A stretch of 64,000 nt of DNA from a virus (IMGVR_UViG_3300020112_000604:96001-160000), one strand, 5' to 3'. Shown: positions 3,315 through 61,475, counted from the stretch's first letter. The notes: generated from the letters alone by a model not told the origin. Numbers and translations are program-made.

Positions 3315-4526
3315 TTATCTTACGAACATTGTGTCATCGAACCATGCATCAGATTCAATAATTAAATCAAATACTTCAGCATCTTCGACCTGTAAAATCT
3401 CAGAGTTAAATGAGAACCATCTGTTCTGAGAAGTTACAGTAATTACTTCTTCACCGGTGCAGATTACTGTTGCTGCTCTAACACCGATGAGTTCGAATTC
3501 TTTGCCGTTAAACATGTAGAGTCTTACGGACTTCATACCTGTCTTACCGGCTGTTGACGGGTTGTCAGACGCTCTTGTATCAGCAACCCACATACCTACG
3601 ATATTTCTTTCGGCATCATAGATATATTCAGCGGACTGTTTCCATGTAAGCTTTGTTGTGCCAGGAATGAATGCGATGTTACCAGCATAGTTTGTTGAAA
3701 GCTGGTCCCATGAGAATACAACGGTCTTAGCATCCTGAATTCTTGATGTATTCTTGATGCTATTGACAAAGTCGTTATGCATAATATCCATGTTCTGGAT
3801 ATTATCCGTCAGGTTTCTGTTACCCTCTGTATTCATTGCTGGAGTAACAGTGAATGATTCAGCTGAGCCAGAAGCTGCGATAGCTTTGATTGTTGTATCC
3901 ATATCGTTTCTGAAATCTTTAGATGCAGCTTTCTGTCCGAATGATACGCCCGTAACTTCAGGTTCTGTTGTTGTGACTGCAGTTGTTGTTACAGGTACTA
4001 CTTCTGTTGTAGTAACAGCTGTAGTTGTTGTAGATTCTGTTGTTGTTACAGCTGTAGTTGTTGTAGCTTCTGTTGTAGTTGTAACTGTTGTTGTTATAGC
4101 CGGTGTTGTTACTGCAGGTGTTGTAACGGCTGCTGGATTACCATAGCTATCCTTGATATCCTGAGCAGTTATCTGATGGCAGATAAACTGTCTCAGTATA
4201 GCCAGGTCAACTAATGATATAACACCATCGGAATTCAGATTTCCTACACCGTCTCTTGTGTAGATTTTGAATTCATTAATTGTCGTTTCTTCACCTATAA
4301 GATAGAGTGAGAGATAAGACAGGTCTGTTATGTCAACCACATTGTTTCGGTCGATGTCACCGATAAGCGTCATGAACGTATCGTCAGGCAAATCTGTCAT
4401 GCCTTTCGACATGTTCCACCGACATGTTGCATAATTGAATTCTGCTGCCGCTGGTCTGATGCCTGTTGTTGTTAATGCAGCTATTGCTGCTAATGTAACG
4501 ATTGCTGATGTAAATATTTTTTTCAT
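3315..4526 (-). CDS. secreted dockerin-domain protein with Thr-rich linker
   Basis: Signal peptide ending PAAA; repeats GDIDRNNVVDITDLSYLSLYL and GNLNSDGVISLVDLAILRQF; long TTT(A/E)V linker; AGGAGG RBS. Confidence 0.85.
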   Translation of the reverse strand: MKKIFTSAIVTLAAIAALTTTGIRPAAAEFNYATCRWNMSKGMTDLPDDTFMTLIGDIDRNNVVDITDLSYLSLYLIGEETTINEFKIYTRDGVGNLNSDGVISLVDLAILRQFICHQITAQDIKDSYGNPAAVTTPAVTTPAITTTVTTTTEATTTTAVTTTESTTTTAVTTTEVVPVTTTAVTTTEPEVTGVSFGQKAASKDFRNDMDTTIKAIAASGSAESFTVTPAMNTEGNRNLTDNIQNMDIMHNDFVNSIKNTSRIQDAKTVVFSWDQLSTNYAGNIAFIPGTTKLTWKQSAEYIYDAERNIVGMWVADTRASDNPSTAGKTGMKSVRLYMFNGKEFELIGVRAATVICTGEEVITVTSQNRWFSFNSEILQVEDAEVFDLIIESDAWFDDTMFVR

Positions 4527-4584
4527 AGTAATTTCCTCCTTAAATTTACGGTTAGTATTTATTATTGATTGATTCGAGCTGGGA

Positions 4585-4773
4585 TTATTCCCAGCCCATA
4601 GACTTCATCCATCGGTGACAATCATAGATGGAGCCGGATGAGAACCAGATTTTACCTTCTGGCGTAGGTATTTCATTAGCGATCTTATCATTTTCAACCT
4701 TGTAATACTTGCCTGAGCAAGTCATGCGGAAAACTATAAATGCTTCTGTTTTACTTGTGTGAATTTCGTACAT
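4585..4773 (-). CDS. small early hypothetical protein
   Basis: AAGGAGG RBS; first gene after the early promoter and structured leader. Confidence 0.7.
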   Translation of the reverse strand: MYEIHTSKTEAFIVFRMTCSGKYYKVENDKIANEIPTPEGKIWFSSGSIYDCHRWMKSMGWE

Positions 4774-4799
4774 GGTTAAGTTCCTCCTTTGAACTATAA

Positions 4800-4874
4800 A
4801 TGCCCTGCATCATAGGCGTTTTTGTATTAGATAAGGTGATGCATATTGTTCCTTATCACTATAATAATATACAA
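4800..4874 (-). promoter_or_regulatory. early promoter plus conserved structured 5' leader, copy 1
   Basis: TGTATATTATTATAGTGATAAGGAACAATATGCATCACCTTATCTAATA..CGCCTATGATGCAGGGCAT, near-identical to 24420..24495. Confidence 0.8.
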
Positions 4875-4905
4875 TTGAATATGGTGAGTTTCTCGGGTAT
4901 AGCTG

Positions 4906-4918
4906 AACATCATTATAA
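4906..4918 (+). promoter_or_regulatory. late (non-virion RNAP-type) promoter AACA-N6-TAA
   Basis: AACATCATTATAA upstream of the prohead protease; the same spacing occurs at more than 12 sites. Confidence 0.7.
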
Positions 4919-4947
4919 ATGCACTTAAATAAAGGAGGTATTGCTAT

Positions 4948-5784
4948 ATGAATCCAAAATCGGTCGGTTATATTCTCACTGAGAATACCGTTAATTCTGA
5001 AACGCAGATTATTGGAGATGATAAAAATGGCCGTTTATTTGCTGAAGGCATTATGCAGGATCTCGATGTTGTAAATCGTAACCAGCGTATATATGCTCCA
5101 GAAGATATGGACCCGGATCTTAACTCTCCAAGAATTCAGCAGGAACTTATTCCTACTGGCAATATGAAAGGTGAAGCAAACCATCCTCTTGATAAATCCT
5201 TAGCACGTCAGCAGGTTGTAGATCTCGAGAGATCAGCAGTAGTATATCACAAGTTATGGCGTGAAGGAAATCTTATCAAGGGTCAGTTCTGCGGAACCAA
5301 TAACAACTTTGGTGATTATTTCAACAAAGATCTTGCTTCCGGATATAAGCCATCATTCTCACTTAGAGCACTTGGTTCTATCGAGAATATCGGCGGTAAG
5401 GCTTATGTAAAGAATATCCGTATCATTACCTATGACTGGGTTATTCTTCCATCACATAAGGTTGCTTACACACAGAAGCTTATTGATAAGCCGGATACTA
5501 TGGTCGGAAACATTGTGTCAACAATGCCTGATTCAATGCGTGAAGGTGCATCTCTTCTTACTGAATCAACTATTCCGATTCTTACATCACAGATTCTTGA
5601 CTTCGTTAAGACTGAATCTGCGGATATCAAATCCGTACTCGAAAACTTTGATCTTTCATATGCTTCAGCACAGCTCATCAATGAGGGTGCTTCGGTAGCT
5701 ATGACAGACTCACTTGGTACTACATTCGTAGTAAACATCGAAGACCACATTAAGCGTCAGTTCATGGACTCATTCGTAGACTAA
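4948..5784 (+). CDS. prohead core protease (T4 gp21-like)
   Basis: Motifs NRNQRIY, GEANHP, FSLRALGS and TYDWVILPSH are typical of gp21-family proteases. Confidence 0.9.
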   Translation: MNPKSVGYILTENTVNSETQIIGDDKNGRLFAEGIMQDLDVVNRNQRIYAPEDMDPDLNSPRIQQELIPTGNMKGEANHPLDKSLARQQVVDLERSAVVYHKLWREGNLIKGQFCGTNNNFGDYFNKDLASGYKPSFSLRALGSIENIGGKAYVKNIRIITYDWVILPSHKVAYTQKLIDKPDTMVGNIVSTMPDSMREGASLLTESTIPILTSQILDFVKTESADIKSVLENFDLSYASAQLINEGASVAMTDSLGTTFVVNIEDHIKRQFMDSFVD

Positions 5785-12748: not shown

Positions 12749-12766
12749 TAGCCAAGGAGGTGCATC

Positions 12767-15115
12767 ATGGATCAGCCAAAAATGCAATATTCGGATAATC
12801 CATATATTGATGCCATCGTGTACTATACGAAATATTTGATTACAAACTCCGTCTTGAAAGATGAGGTCGAAGCGGATAACAACGAAACGTTGTTATCCAT
12901 CAAACGTGGCGGAGAATATGTACGAAAGATAAAGTATGACCACGAAGACGATCCGGATTATATCGAAATTAACCCATATTACTCCACGTTGTGGGGTCAG
13001 CCGACTGTACCTACTATTGCCGAGATACAGGCTGTGTTTGCACATGTTCAGGATACAATGGATTTAGACTCAATAGATCCTACTATATATGCCGACATGT
13101 ACTATATTTCAATGAATCAATACGAGTTCATGATTCCGTCCGGAGTAGAGCTCGATTTGAAGAATAAGTTCTTGCATACTCTTACCGAAACCGAAGTTAT
13201 GATGTGTGAATCCTGTGGAATTATGGATGCTGTACGTAATGATTACGGTTCCGATCCTCACTACAAGTATATTGAATTCGTTGGTCATAAGATTGACCCG
13301 GTAATATCAAGAACTGCAAGCAAATTTCAGTTATTATATGTGCCACCGTTACCAGACGATGACTATAACGACTTGAAATCTAAGTTTGAGATTATATTTG
13401 AAAAGAACAAGAGATACGTTATGAGTGCTATATACAGTGATGCTATGGCATTCCAGAACGTGTACTACGATAAGTTCATAATTATTCTTCTTAAAGTCAT
13501 GACTATGATGGACATGGTCAATGACGTATTTGACTATCTGATTCATAAGGATGTCTTCGATTCAAGAACCATACGTTATCTGTTTGAATCATATGGTGTT
13601 GAATACTATTCTGAGATTCCAACAAAGTATCAGATAGCAATGATTAAGAATATGAACACTCTTCTCAAATACAAGTCAACTAACCGAAATATCGTAGACA
13701 TATGCAATCTGTTCGGATTCCCGAATGTAACAGTATTCAAATACTATCTTCTTAAGGTTCATGACCCTGAGAGCGGGTATAAATTCAATGCCGACGGAAC
13801 AGAAGACTTCTCTGAAGGATATGACCTCGAATTCGTCAAAGTACCGATTGATGGTAAACTTGATGACTATATCAACAATCCTGACTATAGAGAACCGTAT
13901 GACGACATTGCCGGAAATGACCCATTCTGGATTGCAATCAATAACAACCAGACTGACGTATTCAAGAATGCTGACGTTAATGCTCTCAAGTATGACGTTC
14001 GCCAGCAGATTATCAATACTGACTTTACTTGTGAAGAAACTAAGTATTTCTCTATTGATAGTACAGAAGACGTGGCGGCATCGTCTATCGACTTGTGCTA
14101 CTTCTACAACATGATTTACGATGGCATCATAGAAGATTTCACAATAAAGCTTCCTGATAGCATATCTGTAACACCAGTTCCGGTAGGTCAGGTATTTGCA
14201 TATATGACAGCATTAGGATATGTCTATAACGGCGTGGAAGATGACATCATTGCTGCAGACATGGAGAAGAATCTGTATATTCATGGATTCAACTTCGACT
14301 ATACGGATATTGATGCTCTTCTTATTCAGATACGTCGTGAACACACCACAATACGTGATAACTTTGATAGTCTTGATACCGGCGGTAATATGGCTATTGT
14401 CGATAACTTTGAATGGCCACCAACTGGATCATCCGGAATAGAATACACTTACGAGATATTCGAAAGAGTATTTCTCAAGGACAGAGAATTCCACGACAAG
14501 CTTCGTGAAGCCATGAAAGAGACTGATAACTATCATGTGTACTCAGGTTATGAGAAAGTGTACGACACTCTTATGACCACAAAGAATACTCTGAAGTACT
14601 TCACAAAGTTATACTTTGCTGAAGACCCAACCGCCGAATGGGATTGCTCAATCACATATACTAAGTGGTTTGACAGAGTAAACTACTCATTAGCAAAATC
14701 AATAGCCGATTGCAAGGCTATAACTAATACAGAAAAACGTACAGCCACAATATCGAATATCTTCGATGAATGTGTGTACGCTCTCAAGGATGTATTCACC
14801 AATGAACGTTTCGCAAACATATACAATGTGTTGCCGACAAAGAGTGCAGACTTCCTCATCAGCTGTATCGTTAAAGTAATTAACTTCTTCAAGTCATATA
14901 AGGCTCAGTTCATTTCATCCAGTTCAATGTTTATACTCAAAGATGATGACCAGGAAACCGGATTCCTTGAAGATACTGCTGAGAGATTTACCCTTGTATT
15001 GCCACAAACGATGTCTTTCCTTGAAGATATGGGTATAACGTACAAGGATGCAATATATGAAAAAGAGACTCTCGGTGCTCTCGAAAAAGTGTATGTTAAG
15101 GAGACAACTAATTAA
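12767..15115 (+). CDS. large virion structural protein (baseplate-wedge-like)
   Basis: 782 aa in a late operon; LLKYKSTNRNIVDICNLFG resembles the KGT-type wedge motif. Confidence 0.5.
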   Translation: MDQPKMQYSDNPYIDAIVYYTKYLITNSVLKDEVEADNNETLLSIKRGGEYVRKIKYDHEDDPDYIEINPYYSTLWGQPTVPTIAEIQAVFAHVQDTMDLDSIDPTIYADMYYISMNQYEFMIPSGVELDLKNKFLHTLTETEVMMCESCGIMDAVRNDYGSDPHYKYIEFVGHKIDPVISRTASKFQLLYVPPLPDDDYNDLKSKFEIIFEKNKRYVMSAIYSDAMAFQNVYYDKFIIILLKVMTMMDMVNDVFDYLIHKDVFDSRTIRYLFESYGVEYYSEIPTKYQIAMIKNMNTLLKYKSTNRNIVDICNLFGFPNVTVFKYYLLKVHDPESGYKFNADGTEDFSEGYDLEFVKVPIDGKLDDYINNPDYREPYDDIAGNDPFWIAINNNQTDVFKNADVNALKYDVRQQIINTDFTCEETKYFSIDSTEDVAASSIDLCYFYNMIYDGIIEDFTIKLPDSISVTPVPVGQVFAYMTALGYVYNGVEDDIIAADMEKNLYIHGFNFDYTDIDALLIQIRREHTTIRDNFDSLDTGGNMAIVDNFEWPPTGSSGIEYTYEIFERVFLKDREFHDKLREAMKETDNYHVYSGYEKVYDTLMTTKNTLKYFTKLYFAEDPTAEWDCSITYTKWFDRVNYSLAKSIADCKAITNTEKRTATISNIFDECVYALKDVFTNERFANIYNVLPTKSADFLISCIVKVINFFKSYKAQFISSSSMFILKDDDQETGFLEDTAERFTLVLPQTMSFLEDMGITYKDAIYEKETLGALEKVYVKETTN

Positions 15116-15127
15116 GGAGGTACTACT

Positions 15128-16111
15128 ATGAATTTGAATATAAAAGATATTTCTACCGTTGAAGACTCTGTTCAGTCTAACGGTGATTATAAAGCTCACG
15201 GTCATGTACAGAAGACTCGAGTTATAATCCACGAAGTTCTTCCAAGCGGAAGAAAGATATTCAGAGAACTTGGTGAGAACAAGGTAATCGTATCAGGCTC
15301 TGAATTCCATGCAAGAAAAGACTTCAATTTCGGCACAGGTACTTGCTACACTGTAGGCAATAAGGATTCATCTGGCTTCTATAATAAGCTGCCAAATATT
15401 CCTACATACGATGACGAACTCGATGCTAAGTACACATCAACATTTCCTGCAGGTGCCACAGTATACACTGGTGGACAGATGTCAGCCGAAGAAGCTCGTA
15501 AGATATATCTGTTCGGTGTAGGTATCGATGGATGTGGAATCGAAGCATCAAGACGTTTCGTTGTTGCTAAGAACGACTGGATTAAGCCATACGGTCCTGC
15601 ACCGGATGCTCTTACTCCAGAAGGCACAGAAGTTTCTACATGTCTTATCCCATTCAGATGCGTTGATACTGAAACACCAAAGTCCCCTGCTGCTATGGTA
15701 AACTCACATTACCATGGTGCATATCAGGATACAGAAAACGGCAAGACACTTTACTTCTTCAAGGAATTCGATAACGCACCTGTACTCGATTGTACAGCCG
15801 GCGGAGTTCCGATATCTGCTATCACAGGCGGCAGTATCTGGAAGTATAAGACATCAGGTGCCATTGAATGTACTGTTAAGCTTACACTCTCTGTAACAGC
15901 TGAAGACGTCAAGGAGTGGTTTGCTCTGCATGGCGAAGAATCTACTTCTAAGATTAACACAATTTCACTTATCTCTGCGGTTCCATATCTTGATTCATCA
16001 GATAATCTTTGGTATAAGGACTACCGTCCGGTTACCAAGTACAACATGACAAACAAGCCGCTCTCAGATCCAAACTCTGGACTTGAAATCACATACATTC
16101 TGTACTATTAA
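15128..16111 (+). CDS. virion structural protein (baseplate/tail-collar-like)
   Basis: ENKVIVSG, LFGVGIDG, INTISL and terminal EITYILYY; last gene of the late operon. Confidence 0.5.
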   Translation: MNLNIKDISTVEDSVQSNGDYKAHGHVQKTRVIIHEVLPSGRKIFRELGENKVIVSGSEFHARKDFNFGTGTCYTVGNKDSSGFYNKLPNIPTYDDELDAKYTSTFPAGATVYTGGQMSAEEARKIYLFGVGIDGCGIEASRRFVVAKNDWIKPYGPAPDALTPEGTEVSTCLIPFRCVDTETPKSPAAMVNSHYHGAYQDTENGKTLYFFKEFDNAPVLDCTAGGVPISAITGGSIWKYKTSGAIECTVKLTLSVTAEDVKEWFALHGEESTSKINTISLISAVPYLDSSDNLWYKDYRPVTKYNMTNKPLSDPNSGLEITYILYY

Positions 16112-16117
16112 AATACA

Positions 16118-16153
16118 AACCGTAACTCCTAGTGAGTTACGGTTTTATTTTTT
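16118..16153 (+). terminator. intrinsic terminator
   Basis: AAACCGTAACTC-CTAGT-GAGTTACGGTTT followed by a T-run. Confidence 0.8.
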
Positions 16154-16700
16154 AACAATGCTATAACTATATAGTAAAAAATATGACATTAACTTTAATT
16201 ATAGATGATGTACCTCCCATGCCCTCATATCCAGGAGACATGACAATTCTCCTGGATGTGAAGGTCTACATCACATATAACTAAATAGTAATATAAAATA
16301 GATATTTTCACCATCTTAAAGAATTGAAGCATTCCTTTCTGGTTCTGTAATCGGAGCTGTGACACAAACCATAGCTCCGAATATCAGAATCCATCACTAA
16401 CGAATTTTTCAAACTTTAGGTTTTCATAATTTTTTCACTCTTTTCTTCTCTATGCTAGATGTGAAAGCTCATACATCAATGAGCTTTCCTTACCTAGCAT
16501 AACAACTAAAGACATTTTCAGAAGTAATCCTTTTCCTTCACTTCTTTCTTTTCTTTCCTTCCTCAGAGAGCTATGGCCTTCGGCTTTACATAAACTTGAA
16601 GGCTACTACCTCTGAATAACAAATGACATTTTCATCATTTCCTTTCTATAAAAATAAATTAGTAAACTGGCTCACCCTAATCGGGTGAGCCGATTTACTT
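16154..16700 (+). ncRNA. putative small-RNA array of five ~110-nt units (motif, anti-RBS tract, two-tier hairpin)
   Basis: Late promoter AACAATGCTATAA at 16154-16166; GACATTTTCA-like motifs at 16185, 16301, 16402, 16511 and 16625; hairpins at 16206-16273, 16340-16393, 16451-16501, 16563-16615 and 16661-16699; no ORF of 60 aa or more. Confidence 0.6.
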
Positions 16701-16754
16701 GCAACTTGTATGTAAGACATAATCCTGTGTCTTGGAGGACGGATGACATAAATA

Positions 16755-16781
16755 TCCCGTGACGAGCATATCGTCACGGGA
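16755..16781. terminator. terminator hairpin
   Basis: TCCCGTGACGA-GCATA-TCGTCACGGGA at the end of the RNAP gene and the array. Confidence 0.75.
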
Positions 16782-16794
16782 AGTATTTTGTCTT

Positions 16795-18027
16795 TTACTC
16801 GTCTGGGAATGCTTTGTCTAAGTCTATATCTGTATACTTAACAACACCATCGTGGAAAGCTTTCATGGCGATATTCTTAATCTTGGACTGCATTTGTGCT
16901 GTAGCAATACCAACGGCACTCATTCCAATCATATAGAAGTAGTCGCCGATACATTTATTGCAGAACTGATGAGATGGTCCAATACCTTTGCACATAGAAC
17001 AATATCTCATCTTGACGGTCTTACCCTTATATTTATCGACAGTTGTGGAATCGAGTCTTACCAGATTCTTGCCGTCTACGATATATGAGTACATCATCTG
17101 TGATAAGTACTTTCCTTTGAGTGTAACCTCGATTGTTTCTGTAGTTCCACAGTCTGAACCTTTAGGACCAAGTACCAGGTTCTGGAATGAAAGAACGTAT
17201 TTCTTTTCGTTATAACCACCGGTCATTGTCTTTCTTGCACGAGCGTATGGACCTGCAGCAAGCGAGTTGGCCATGGCAGCATATTCATCTTTGCTAACTC
17301 CATCAACGTAGTTTGACAGCATAACGTTGTACTTACCTGTGATAGGGTCTTTAACAGCTCCCTTCATAACGTATGTGTTCTTGAAGTTGTTACCCCATGA
17401 ACCTACACCGCAATCGTAGTAGTCCATAGCAGGGTCATCCTTAAAGTATTCCTTAGCATATTTAAGAAGCTCGTTTTCGAGTTCAACGCCGGCAAGTGGG
17501 TCACCTGCAGCTATTCTGTCTTTATACTTTGGAAGAAGTTCTTTCTTCTTCTTGTTTATAGGTTCGGAAGCGTTAAACATTGCTTCTGTTGTTGAAACCG
17601 CAATAGCCGATGTATAAGACATAAACTTCTGCTGCTTCTGTAAGAATTCAAGTTCTACTTCGATAGGTATCTTATCTTCGTTTACCGCGTAAGCAACCTG
17701 TTCCGATATCTTACCGATATTCTTTTTGGTAAGGTCAAAGTTTACGTAACCAACTACGTCGGTTAACTTCTCTTCGATAAATGCTTTGTTGAAAATGAAT
17801 CTGCCTACAGTTGTAAGCACATCATTCTTGTTTTTGTGTCCTTCAGGACCAAAAGTTCCTGCAGGAATTGTCATGATATCGTATGTGTTGAATCTAGGAG
17901 GCTTACCCTCGAAAGATGCAAACAAGTTCATGAAGACAGACATCTTACATGCTTCATACGGAGTGAGTTTAAGTAATTCGTCCTGTTCTTCCTGAGTGAT
18001 AACTCGAGATATTCTTTTATTATTCAT
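16795..18027 (-). CDS. rpoC: RNA polymerase beta' C-terminal fragment (virion RNAP)
   Basis: Bridge-helix-like ARARKTMTGGY, SDCGT, zinc site RYCSMCK..FCNKCIG, trigger-loop-like MKAFH; late promoter at 18047-18059. Confidence 0.85.
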   Translation of the reverse strand: MNNKRISRVITQEEQDELLKLTPYEACKMSVFMNLFASFEGKPPRFNTYDIMTIPAGTFGPEGHKNKNDVLTTVGRFIFNKAFIEEKLTDVVGYVNFDLTKKNIGKISEQVAYAVNEDKIPIEVELEFLQKQQKFMSYTSAIAVSTTEAMFNASEPINKKKKELLPKYKDRIAAGDPLAGVELENELLKYAKEYFKDDPAMDYYDCGVGSWGNNFKNTYVMKGAVKDPITGKYNVMLSNYVDGVSKDEYAAMANSLAAGPYARARKTMTGGYNEKKYVLSFQNLVLGPKGSDCGTTETIEVTLKGKYLSQMMYSYIVDGKNLVRLDSTTVDKYKGKTVKMRYCSMCKGIGPSHQFCNKCIGDYFYMIGMSAVGIATAQMQSKIKNIAMKAFHDGVVKYTDIDLDKAFPDE

Positions 18028-18181
18028 GGTGTCGACCTCCTTTGTATTATTTTATTGTTCTAATAACACATATATAACTTAACTTTAACCTTATAGAATG
18101 CATGGTGAGTTCCGTTTCGGAACCCACTTTTGTAGTCGGTTTTTGACTTATATATTATAAGAGTGAAAGGAGTGAACGCTA

Positions 18182-18673: not shown

Positions 18674-20281
18674 ATGAATATTACTGAACAGGATATTGTG
18701 GATTACAGAAGTACGATCCGATTCACATATGCGAATGACCCACATTATGACACAGACGTTCATGTCGAGATACTCAATCTTGATGAAGAACGAGTTAAAG
18801 ACATGAACACAGGTAAGGGCATGCTTATTACACATAAGCAGTCTCTTAAGGCTAATGTCGAGAAGAATAGAAACTCTATCTTCTCATCTTACTTCTTCGG
18901 TAAGAATCTTGGTGACGTTGGTTCACCACTTGAATCAGAATACAAATGTCCATGCGGATATGTATCAGGACATCTGTATAACGGTTCTATCTGTCCTAAA
19001 TGCAGACAGAAAGTACGTAAACTTGAAACAAGCTTTGATAAGTATGGATGGATAGTAATCAGAAATTATTATCTGATTCATCCAAATTTATACAGAGCAC
19101 TCGAAACCTTCTTAGGTGCTAAGGTTCTTAACGATATATGCATGCCTCTTATCGATCTTGATAAGAACGGTCTCACAATCGTAAAAGAACAGATGCTTAA
19201 ACAGGTTGCCAAATCAGGTAAGAAGAAACTGACGAGAGAAACTAAAGCTTCACAGGAGAACCCATTCATCGGTATAGGTATGATTGAGTTCCACGATCGT
19301 TTCGATGAGATAATGAAGTATTACTACAGCAAAGCTTCACGTTCAAAGAAAGAATTGTACGAACACATAATGAATAACCGTGACAAGTTATTCACGTCAT
19401 CAGTTCCGGTATATTCACTTCAGTTACGTCCATATGAGATAACCGACAACAAGTTCGTTCTTGAATCTGTAAACAAGAACTACAACATGATGGCATCGCA
19501 TGCTAACTATGTTAACAAACAGGACTGTGCATTCCAGAATAACCGTAAGAGTAAATCGGTTCTTCTTTACAAGATGCAGCAGTGCTGGAATGATATCTAT
19601 TGTCTTACAGAGAAACGTCTCTCTGGTAAGAAGGGAGACATCAGAGAATGCATGTCATACCGTTCTAACTTCTCTATTCGTAATATCATTACTCCTGCAG
19701 TAGATCTCGAAATAGATGAAGTAAGATTACCATATGCTGCATGTATCGAACTTCTCAGATTACAGCTTATCGCTATTCTTCAGAAGACACACGGCTATTC
19801 TTATGCACAGGCCTATGCTGCTTGGTATAACGCAAAGCTTGTGCCTAATAAAGAAATGAAGAATCTTATGATGAGCATTATTAATGATTCACCATATGGT
19901 GGACTCCCTTGTTTGCTCAACAGAAACCCAACTATCAGCTTTGGTTCTATCTTATTCGTTAAGTGCGTTGGTATCAATGATAACTACGCATGTTCGGTAA
20001 GTAACCTCATTCTGAAATTGATCGCAGGTGACTTTGACGGCGACACAGTAACAATCTTGTATCTTATGAATCATGACATTATTATGAGAAGCATGATCAA
20101 CCTTAGCCCTATGAATGCGATGGTTATCAGTAAGAATGATGGCATGTTCAATGACGATGTAAATCTCCAGACCGAGGCTATTATATCTCTTAACAGCTTC
20201 AGACGTCTTGCTACACAGTACACCGAAGACGAGGAAGAAAACATTGCTCATCTCTTAACATTAAGACCTGAAGAAGAATAA
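18674..20281 (+). CDS. rpoC: RNA polymerase beta' N-terminal catalytic fragment (non-virion RNAP)
   Basis: Zinc ribbon CPCG..CPKC, GKKGDIR, NRNPTI, catalytic GDFDGD; in an early operon. Confidence 0.9.
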   Translation: MNITEQDIVDYRSTIRFTYANDPHYDTDVHVEILNLDEERVKDMNTGKGMLITHKQSLKANVEKNRNSIFSSYFFGKNLGDVGSPLESEYKCPCGYVSGHLYNGSICPKCRQKVRKLETSFDKYGWIVIRNYYLIHPNLYRALETFLGAKVLNDICMPLIDLDKNGLTIVKEQMLKQVAKSGKKKLTRETKASQENPFIGIGMIEFHDRFDEIMKYYYSKASRSKKELYEHIMNNRDKLFTSSVPVYSLQLRPYEITDNKFVLESVNKNYNMMASHANYVNKQDCAFQNNRKSKSVLLYKMQQCWNDIYCLTEKRLSGKKGDIRECMSYRSNFSIRNIITPAVDLEIDEVRLPYAACIELLRLQLIAILQKTHGYSYAQAYAAWYNAKLVPNKEMKNLMMSIINDSPYGGLPCLLNRNPTISFGSILFVKCVGINDNYACSVSNLILKLIAGDFDGDTVTILYLMNHDIIMRSMINLSPMNAMVISKNDGMFNDDVNLQTEAIISLNSFRRLATQYTEDEEENIAHLLTLRPEEE

Positions 20282-60568: not shown

Positions 60569-61351
60569 TTAGAATGGTGATTCGTCGTCAAAATCTCCTA
60601 AGAGAGCTGATACGTCGTCGATTTCTTCTGGTGCTGAACTTGCACGTCCGCTGTTGCTGCCGCCGCTTGGGTTCATGTTGAAGAATGATGCGTTAGACTT
60701 GGATGCTTTACCGCCTGAAGAAACTCCGAGTTTGCTTGCGATATTGTTGAGTGTTTCATATGTGTGCTTTGAACTGCTGAAGTACATAGCATCAACAACT
60801 GAGTATGCTGTAGCTGAGCATGAAGCCTTGTAGAATTCATAGAGATTTGTCTGAAGCATTCTGAGTTCAAATGCTGCATCCATGTCCTCGGTGCTGAATG
60901 TGTTTGTGTCAAGATCGAAGTTTGTAACACCCTTATAGAATCCTGTTGAGAATTCGTATGTAACGATTCCTTCGATTCCGGATGGTGAAGCGTTGCCGAT
61001 TACGAGAAGATAAGCATCGCCCTTCTTTGTGATAGTGATGAGTCTTGTATCGTTTGATACTGTTACGCCGTATGATGAGAAGTCACCGTTGATAAGCTTG
61101 TCAATACCGTCAGCAAGGAGCTTTGCCTTTGCCGGTGTAACGAAAGCGTAGTTGCCGTTCTTGTCGTCATACTTAACGAAGTTCTGTGAATTGTTTTCAT
61201 CCTTTGGCTGGATGTGGAGCTTCATAAGACCTTTCCAGTATGTGATAGCAATTCTGGATGCACCTGAAGCTGCTGCAGGATTTGCGAATGAGTAACCGCC
61301 GTATACGGTTGGTCTGTAGTCCTTTTCTGTGTTGTTTGAATTAAAAGCCAT
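60569..61351 (-). CDS. putative single-stranded DNA-binding protein
   Basis: Likely start MAFNS; G/S-rich linker and SSB-like acidic tail DFDDESPF. Confidence 0.55.
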   Translation of the reverse strand: MAFNSNNTEKDYRPTVYGGYSFANPAAASGASRIAITYWKGLMKLHIQPKDENNSQNFVKYDDKNGNYAFVTPAKAKLLADGIDKLINGDFSSYGVTVSNDTRLITITKKGDAYLLVIGNASPSGIEGIVTYEFSTGFYKGVTNFDLDTNTFSTEDMDAAFELRMLQTNLYEFYKASCSATAYSVVDAMYFSSSKHTYETLNNIASKLGVSSGGKASKSNASFFNMNPSGGSNSGRASSAPEEIDDVSALLGDFDDESPF

Positions 61352-61475
61352 AGTAATGTACCTCCTAAGATTTTTCATATATGATTAAAAAGATTCGATT
61401 ACATAATCTATGTAATTACTTTATAGTTTACACTGGTGTAAATTTTAACTTTTATATAAATTGGAGGTGGGCATT

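Follow-up and report, generated by a model that had tools for sequence, protein, structure and literature searches.

What does a jumbo phage keep in a 683-nt space between two convergent genes, where boxes and hairpins recur at near-regular intervals? The DNA analysed here, the window, is a 64,000-nt stretch (bases 96001–160000) of a 183.7-kb viral contig estimated to be 75% complete. Within it, a gap at 16112–16794 separates a virion protein gene (15128–16111, plus strand) from a gene for a piece of the RNA polymerase beta subunit (16795–18027, minus strand; phrog_2962). A second beta-subunit match follows at 18674–20281 on the plus strand (phrog_2987), and a virion structural protein (phrog_20751) is encoded at 12767–15115 on the plus strand. 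These flanking genes indicate a jumbo phage with split multisubunit RNA polymerases, and the source is a rumen jumbo phage of the AR9-like type. We propose, with a probability of about 0.8, that the gap is a functional RNA locus read from the plus strand.

A gap with repeated boxes, tracts and hairpins

By size, the gap ranks second among the ORF-free gaps of at least 250 nt listed for the contig. An initial annotation of the window had described about 550 nt here with no long ORF, and the longest ORFs in the gap do have just 33 aa on the plus strand and 46 aa on the minus strand. The 33-aa ORF (16183–16284) was rejected as a gene, being frame-shifted in one related contig (L064) and without its start in another (L187); comparison with relatives revealed no conserved plus-strand ORF in the gap. 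A tRNA scan of the window and of the related contig L008 found nothing, as did Rfam searches of both at gathering and at permissive thresholds. The segment 16050–16850 gave no relevant Rfam match at E up to 10, and BLAST against deposited phages gave no match. The annotation, too, had recognised no described family, and within the window every Rfam family stays below its gathering score. We regard the RNA of the gap as a real, previously undescribed non-coding RNA candidate.

Exact copies of the motif GAYATTTTCA (box b) start at 16301, 16511 and 16625, all on the plus strand and within 334 nt; they are the sole exact copies on both strands of the 64-kb window, where 0.71 would be expected. The box at 16402 (GAATTTTTCA) has two mismatches, and the copy at 16185 is weak. 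Spacings of 116, 101, 109 and 114 nt, from which five units had been proposed, were reproduced from the sequence, and all five of the two-tier hairpins described with them are present (H1 spans 16194–16285; H2–H5 are in Table 1). The gap region folds more stably than shuffled sequence, with z = −12.5 on the plus strand and −10.1 on the minus strand.

Pyrimidine tracts between boxes and hairpins differ in sequence from unit to unit and are conserved between phages. The tracts and the CCUCCC of H1 have predicted probabilities of being unpaired of 0.54–0.94 (0.94 for CCUCCC itself), compared with 0.22–0.37 for the stems. With the exception of H1, the tracts carry UCCUUUCU and not full CCUCC. The H1 5′ motif (ATAGATGATGTACCTCC in the three-way alignment described below) is 100% invariant and is unique in the 183.7-kb genome. 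CRISPR arrays have near-identical direct repeats of about 24–48 nt and unique spacers of similar length; here the shared box covers about 10–20 nt at 73–85% identity and the units measure 101–116 nt, which sets the locus apart from such arrays.

Table 1 Features of the gap, in window coordinates
Feature	Position	Strand	Observation
T1, intrinsic terminator of the virion-protein gene, 12-bp stem and T-run	16117–16151	+	Terminator at the same position in L187, L064, L069, L070 and L006–8
P1, two overlapping late-type motifs: AACA-ATGCTA-TA (16154–16165) and AACT-ATATAG-TA (16165–16176, box a1)	16154–16176	+	Segment 80% invariant
b0, degenerate box b (GACATTAACT)	16185–16194	+	GAnATT kept in L187, L064 and L066; weak
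H1 5′ motif ATAGATGATGTACCTCCC, exposed CCUCCC, anti-Shine–Dalgarno-like	16201–16219	+	17/17 invariant in three lineages
H1 inner hairpin, about 17 bp	16220–16266	+	Different hairpin at the same place in L066
H1 3′ motif GGTCTACATCAC and box a2	16263–16292	+	93% invariant; 45-nt run identical to L064
P2 (box a2), AACT-AAATAG-TA	16279–16290	+	Late promoter motif
b1, GATATTTTCA	16301–16310	+	Exact GAYATTTTCA
t1, CATTCCTTTCT tract	16328–16340	+	Same 11-mer at the same place in L187 and L064; P(unpaired) 0.54
H2, two-tier hairpin	16340–16393	+	25% invariant across lineages; L187 and L064 also have a hairpin there
b2, GAATTTTTCA, degenerate	16402–16411	+	Two mismatches to GAYATTTTCA
t2, GGTTTTCATAATTTTTTCACTCTTTTC tract	16419–16446	+	80% invariant in three lineages; P(unpaired) 0.68
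H3, two-tier hairpin	16451–16501	+	14% invariant across lineages
b3, GACATTTTCA	16511–16520	+	10/10 invariant
t3, long pyrimidine tract	16521–16563	+	Sequence
H4, two-tier hairpin	16563–16615	+	Fold
b4, GACATTTTCA	16625–16634	+	Exact GAYATTTTCA
t4, TCATTTCCTTTCTATA tract	16635–16650	+	GACATTTTCATT..TTTCCTTTC conserved in L187 and twice in L064
H5, terminator-like hairpin closing the main unit	16661–16699	+	Four strain SNPs keep pairing
P3, AACT-TGTATG-TA, possible third late promoter	16703–16714	+	Third box a at the analogous place in L064
h6, small hairpin of the short last unit	16713–16734	+	Fold
T2, bidirectional terminator common to the RNA polymerase gene	16755–16790	Both	Loop inverted between strains

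Late-type promoters and terminators

In AR9, the late promoters used by the non-virion RNA polymerase read AACA-(6N)-TA/G (PMC5312081). Upstream of the genes of our contig, AACA-N6-TA has 23 matches in sense orientation and AACT-N6-TA has 20, against 4–6.5 expected and 5–6 in antisense for each; AACG-N6-TA and AACC-N6-TA are not enriched there. The predicted late promoter consensus of this phage is AAC(A/T)-N6-TA, the AACT form being as common as the AACA form (20 versus 23). Motif and spacing are thus those of AR9, except that position 4 is T as often as A. The copies in the gap differ further in adding an extended conserved box (TATAACTATATAGTAAT), which is absent elsewhere in the genome. 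Box a is conserved in relatives, and its AACTATATAGTAA is the AACT form of the late promoter. We had considered box a as a locus-specific operator and dropped this idea, AACT-N6-TA being as enriched upstream of genes as AACA-N6-TA; a collection-wide scan with box a was also discarded, the motif being too degenerate and its matches chance AT-rich sequence. Box-a-like promoters lie 50 and 65 nt upstream of the minus-strand genes 60569–61378 and 83963–84619, and beyond the window the box recurs between genes as AATGACATTTTCACTTGACATTTTTTAA, on the plus strand at about 13886 of G000:C1 (window coordinate −82114).

Four late-type motifs occur in the gap on the plus strand (16154, 16165, 16279 and 16703) and none on the minus strand; nine related gaps together hold 24 on the plus strand and 2 on the minus strand, with about 3.5 expected per strand. 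The window, L187 and L064 all have AACA and TATAAC unchanged, while the four bases in between vary, the signature of a two-element promoter. A late promoter directly behind a terminator had been claimed for this locus, and we find a terminator at 16117–16145 with its T-run, then the AR9-type motif AACA-ATGCTA-TA; AR9 late promoters can also drive non-coding or antisense RNAs (PMC5312081). The promoter at 16154 therefore stands, but the idea that it alone serves the array does not, given the four plus-strand motifs and two or three transcription units. Transcription would start, as we infer from the motifs, at 16165 and 16176 from P1 and at 16290 from P2.

Intrinsic terminators, scored as a hairpin with a U-run, number 5 against 0.4 expected and comprise T1, H5 and T2, some on both strands. 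A GC-rich hairpin with a direct U-run is found in T1 and T2, weakly in H5 (whose U-tract on the plus strand is poor) and not in H1–H4. P3, just past H5, could start a short RNA, about 77 nt long and with a single small hairpin, that ends at T2; this RNA contains GGAGGACGGATGACATAA, a Shine–Dalgarno (SD) sequence with a two-codon ORF. Between near-identical strains, the T2 loop (16766–16770) and its closing base are exact reverse complements (GAGCATATC versus GATATGCTC), a hairpin-loop inversion polymorphism.

Early promoters of the phage have a different form. The core TATATTAT lies within a long box, TC..TTTTCAnTTATATATTATwAnnGTG, upstream of at least 16 genes, and this box resembles the AR9 early consensus (PMC5312081). 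Examples are at 18151 (plus strand), 60505 and 58890 (both minus strand). In several copies an AAGGAG-type ribosome-binding site directly follows the box on its 3′ side, which implies very short leaders on those early mRNAs. Scanning the gap with a matrix built from 16 real early promoters of the phage found no early promoter: the best scores were 2.3 and −0.9 (genome-wide ranks 27 and 38), and both sites are without TATATTAT, the core found unchanged in all 16 training copies. The idea of decayed minus-strand early promoters as the origin of the units, which a likeness by eye in TGAAAATGTC..TATATTAC had suggested, was rejected with matrix scores near 0.

Homologous arrays in related phages

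Relatives were recovered by protein searches with both flanking genes, which gave contigs at graded distances. The initial annotation had called for a search for homologous arrays, and these were found in the same slot in L064/L188 (polymerase piece 85% and virion protein 67% identical to those of the window), L066/L189 (polymerase piece 72%) and L187 (virion protein 67%). More distant members (65–69%; L006–8, L069 and L070) have one-domain versions in which one promoter box leads directly into a long-range stem that closes off a domain of about 130–190 nt, beyond which lies the GAYATTTTCA box again. The four closing stems of these relatives differ in sequence and all pair.

Identical runs between the window and the L064 gap reach 45, 18 and 16 nt, compared with maxima of 17 and 26 nt in the coding flanks (66–76% nucleotide identity). 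In a three-way alignment of lineages, the invariant fraction was 80% for the promoter with box a1, 94% for the 3′ arm of H1, 93% for GGTCTACATCAC with box a2, 80% for t2 and 100% for b3, but only 25% for H2 and 14% for H3. Every phage nevertheless has a hairpin at the corresponding place, and the period of the units persists (101 and 100 nt in L187). Invariant linkers beside divergent hairpins at fixed places suggest that the linkers are selected for their sequence and the stem-loops for pairing only. The proposal of a repeat–spacer logic conserved in structure and not in sequence thus describes the hairpins well, their position and pairing being kept at 14–25% invariance; the tracts keep their sequence between phages. 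The H4 unit has no counterpart in L187, where box-b units number three. A strain SNP in H4 (16584 C>G) turns a C.C mismatch into a G–C pair; an apparent compensatory pair at 16588/16591 was discounted because it would close a 2-nt loop.

L187 has its array next to the virion gene, while in that sample the polymerase gene adjoins a different neighbour. An apparent absence of the array from the closest relative, L065 (74-nt gap), was set aside: L065 has an unrelated gene as neighbour, and its sample does contain the array, next to the virion gene of L187. On this basis we assign the array to the side of the virion gene.

The slot can also have other contents. In L002 (47% identity; 3956–5642, strand equivalent to the window plus strand) it holds four tandem paralogous small genes of 62–84 aa. 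Three of the four proteins share C(S/T)MVVIPYQ near the N-terminus and the fourth has CSMVVIPAVQ; each gene is preceded by a conserved hairpin, AGAGAGTGAG..CTCACTCTCT; three are followed by AAGAAGCTTATATATAAGT and the fourth by a variant. Late accessory modules seem to have a hot spot in this slot. Elsewhere, in L067 (440–1300; 77% identity), a GIY-YIG/NUMOD3 homing-endonuclease-like gene lies directly upstream of the polymerase beta piece.

Another account of the gap is that stacked hairpins and terminators act in cis, protecting the 3′ ends of two convergent units and stopping polymerase collisions, with no trans-acting product. The position between convergent genes, the excess of terminators (T1, H5 and T2 score as such, some on both strands; 5 versus 0.4 expected) and the freedom of the hairpin sequences to evolve would all suit such a buffer. 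It leaves aside, however, the conserved promoter motifs downstream of T1 and the linkers and H1 motifs that are more conserved than the coding flanks; H2–H4 lack U-tracts, and L187 keeps its array without the polymerase gene as a neighbour. We consider this account quite improbable.

Strand of transcription

The initial annotation had taken G–U pairs in the stems as a sign of plus-strand RNA. The window alone does not bear this out, with three G.T and three A.C wobbles, but the argument holds once relatives are included: local GC-containing stems of seven gaps have 26 G.T and 13 A.C wobbles, where composition predicts 17 (p = 0.005). These stems replaced an unrestricted census (128 versus 157), in which long-range stems formed at random by AT-rich sequence overwhelmed the count. 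In six of six sequences H1 is more stable as plus-strand than as minus-strand RNA; an A–U pair of H1 has become G–C by compensatory change in L187, and L064 has three one-sided substitutions that give G.U. In the H5 stem of near-identical strains, all four substitutions keep pairing, through plus-strand G.U or a change to Watson–Crick. Promoter orientation, wobble bias and the pairing evidence from H1 and H5 together indicate that the plus strand is the transcribed, functional one, and we predict it as most likely so. The description of a promoter-driven, plus-strand non-coding array is in this way upheld by promoter statistics, homologous arrays and strand-biased wobbles.

Two other readings bear on this point. 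In one, the minus strand does the work and the tract complements are real ribosome-binding sites of tiny genes or leader peptides (MKMSFVIQR, MSLVVML..., MKT). In unit 5 and in L064, AGAAAGGAAA on the minus strand does have an ATG at a good distance, MKMSF is common to three ORFs, and the region is purine-rich on the minus strand like the neighbouring minus-strand gene. Yet the peptides have 3–39 aa and are unrelated beyond 4–6 codons, with at most MKMSF or MK in common; ATA replaces ATG in several box b copies (window 16301, L070 and L006), and the SD-to-ATG spacing at t1 is 1 nt. The gap has no minus-strand late-promoter motif and a best early-promoter matrix score of about 2 on either strand, two terminators separate the polymerase gene from the array, and the stem wobbles favour the plus strand. 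We judge this reading very improbable.

In the other, the locus works as DNA, the 10-bp boxes being protein-binding sites (of a replication origin, or a packaging or partition site) and the palindromes forming cruciforms. The repetition of boxes at 100–116-bp spacing, the 10-bp palindrome in the ACTATATAGT core of box a and the rank of the gap in size speak for it. Strand-biased wobbles and compensatory changes, though, point to a single-stranded plus-strand molecule, and box a fits the phage promoter consensus. The global extremes of cumulative GC skew are far from the gap, the nearest local extreme lying near 15000, just before the gene-strand switch. A DNA-level element has, in our view, very little probability indeed.

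Predicted pairing with translation-initiation regions

The initial annotation read the tracts as complements of translation-initiation regions. The tracts that it quoted are present and their complements are SD-plus-ATG-like. Against 147 initiation regions of the phage, the tracts pair at −9.6 to −13.4 kcal/mol, compared with −6.1 to −8.7 for internal coding windows. For four of the five tracts this pairing is better than that of shuffled tracts, by a modest z of −2.0 to −2.9; t3 does no better than shuffles against the same regions (z −0.1). SD-complementary sites are about twofold commoner than in shuffles. A preference for genes behind early promoters is faint and uncorrected (t2, p = 0.011; t4, p = 0.025).

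Within the 75%-complete genome, no initiation region of the phage matches a tract over an extended length, and an approximate search of the whole contig gave generic SD-like matches only. The best candidate came from H1, whose motif UGAUGUACCUCC (16206–16218) is complementary over 12–13 bp, with one G.U, to the SD-to-AUG region (12755–12769) of the virion gene at 12767–15115 (−24.6 kcal/mol). It was rejected: the relatives L188 and L189 keep the H1 motif and not the target sequence, so this pairing is probably coincidence. Comparison of phage initiation regions with relatives gave no specific conserved mRNA target. The anti-initiation reading thus survives as a general complementarity, without a particular target that is conserved; generic anti-SD or decoy action fits the data better than guide-like targeting of particular genes. 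A mechanism directed at translation initiation (anti-RBS) is, on this evidence, a tentative proposal that we think somewhat doubtful.

The same structural and promoter evidence would fit equally a structured plus-strand RNA whose linkers bind or titrate a protein or act as a decoy, or which serves as a scaffold, with an RNA chaperone, ribosomal protein S1, or an RNase or toxin recognising the 16S 3′ tail as candidate partners. Short conserved single-stranded motifs between hairpins are the layout of a protein-sponge RNA, a parallel drawn for LhrC (PMC4132741), and the lack of a conserved mRNA target among the phage initiation regions agrees with it. Set against this are the order-dependent complementarity of the tracts to initiation regions and a candidate list from which no binding protein has been identified. 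We find protein titration unlikely.

Proposed mechanism

The locus is predicted to be a phage-encoded structured regulatory RNA, for which anatomy and conservation are well supported. More specifically, we suggest, at rather less than even odds, a late-expressed, plus-strand, modular riboregulator or decoy RNA locus of an AR9-like jumbo phage, with linkers acting on translation initiation. Two or three late-type promoters (16154/16165, 16279 and 16703) would fire just past the virion gene terminator. From P1 would come the highly conserved H1 element, exposing CCUCCC, and from P2 an RNA some 400 nt long that repeats one module four times (GAYAUUUUCA box, then pyrimidine tract, then two-tier stem-loop) and ends at H5. 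The stem-loops would be structural spacers and stabilisers, under selection for pairing only, and the single-stranded linkers, whose sequence is kept between phages, would be the working parts. Resembling the 16S rRNA 3′ tail, the linkers could base-pair with the SD and start regions of mRNAs, or they could titrate a factor that binds such pyrimidine-rich RNA; either action might damp translation initiation late in infection.

Cleavage in or close to the box may also divide the transcript into pieces of about 100–115 nt that have a seed at the 5′ end and a hairpin at the 3′ end; the initial annotation had likewise thought of a precursor that is cut, naming RNase III as an example. Only the architecture hints at such cleavage, through the conserved box after every stem-loop and through H2–H4, which lack U-tracts; the missing U-runs also make the ends of any unit-sized products guesses. 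We hold such processing to be unlikely. In its fullest form, the proposal is of a polycistronic riboregulator, a late transcript cut at GAYAUUUUCA boxes into sibling sRNAs of about 100–115 nt, with a 5′ pyrimidine seed mimicking the 16S tail and a 3′ hairpin, which would jointly shut off translation initiation of early phage or host mRNAs; we think this unlikely, though it has a real chance of being right.

Comparison with known systems

The nearest known logic, by analogy, appears to be that of the LhrC sRNAs. An LhrC sRNA measures about 110 nt, and every copy is encoded by a gene of its own, complete with promoter and terminator. In Listeria monocytogenes, LhrC1–5 are sibling sRNAs in which redundant CU-rich motifs in loops and single-stranded stretches bind the G-rich SD region and block translation (PMC4132741). 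The phage array is alike in having sibling units with redundant pyrimidine-rich motifs in parts predicted to be single-stranded. It differs in that the four box-b units appear to share P2, with no promoter motif between units and no U-tract at H2–H4, and in its motif, which is UCCUUUCU or GAYAUUUUCA, a UCCC-like CCUCCC being found in H1 only. The phage locus is moreover late (by motif), phage-encoded and without sequence similarity to LhrC, and it has no Rfam match at all.

Sponge RNAs of the CsrB/RsmZ type also have many stem-loops with a short repeated motif and work by titration, the motif being GGA in hairpin loops of the transcribed strand. The array shares the many stem-loops and the short repeated motif, but its transcribed strand is pyrimidine-rich with GGA on the opposite strand, and its conserved motifs lie between hairpins and not in loops. 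Intergenic and 5′UTR-derived sRNAs, function unknown, have been described in the Pseudomonas jumbo phages 201phi2-1 and phiKZ (PMC11512511). These are likewise jumbo phages with their own multisubunit polymerases, and one of the sRNAs is position-conserved beside a structural gene across genera; the sRNAs are, however, single, shorter than 250 nt and found through premature termination, and none is described as a repeated hairpin–linker array (PMC11512511). Hosts and phage lineages also differ from those of the array.

Significance

Jumbo phages with their own RNA polymerases switch transcription from early to late genes, and control at the level of translation is much less clear. If our reading is right, a conserved RNA driven by late promoters and mirroring ribosome-binding sites would be a concrete candidate for RNA-level translation control by an uncultivated rumen phage. 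Its gene layout would be unusual: one transcript would carry several regulator modules, and selection would act both on the sequence of the linkers and on the shape of the hairpins. In the polycistronic form, if true, structure would be what maintains the logic of repeats and linkers, and jumbo phages would have a new, multiplexed class of translational silencer. Even with another function, the locus would define a new RNA family that can be searched for in metagenomes by its clear signatures of promoter, motif and structure.
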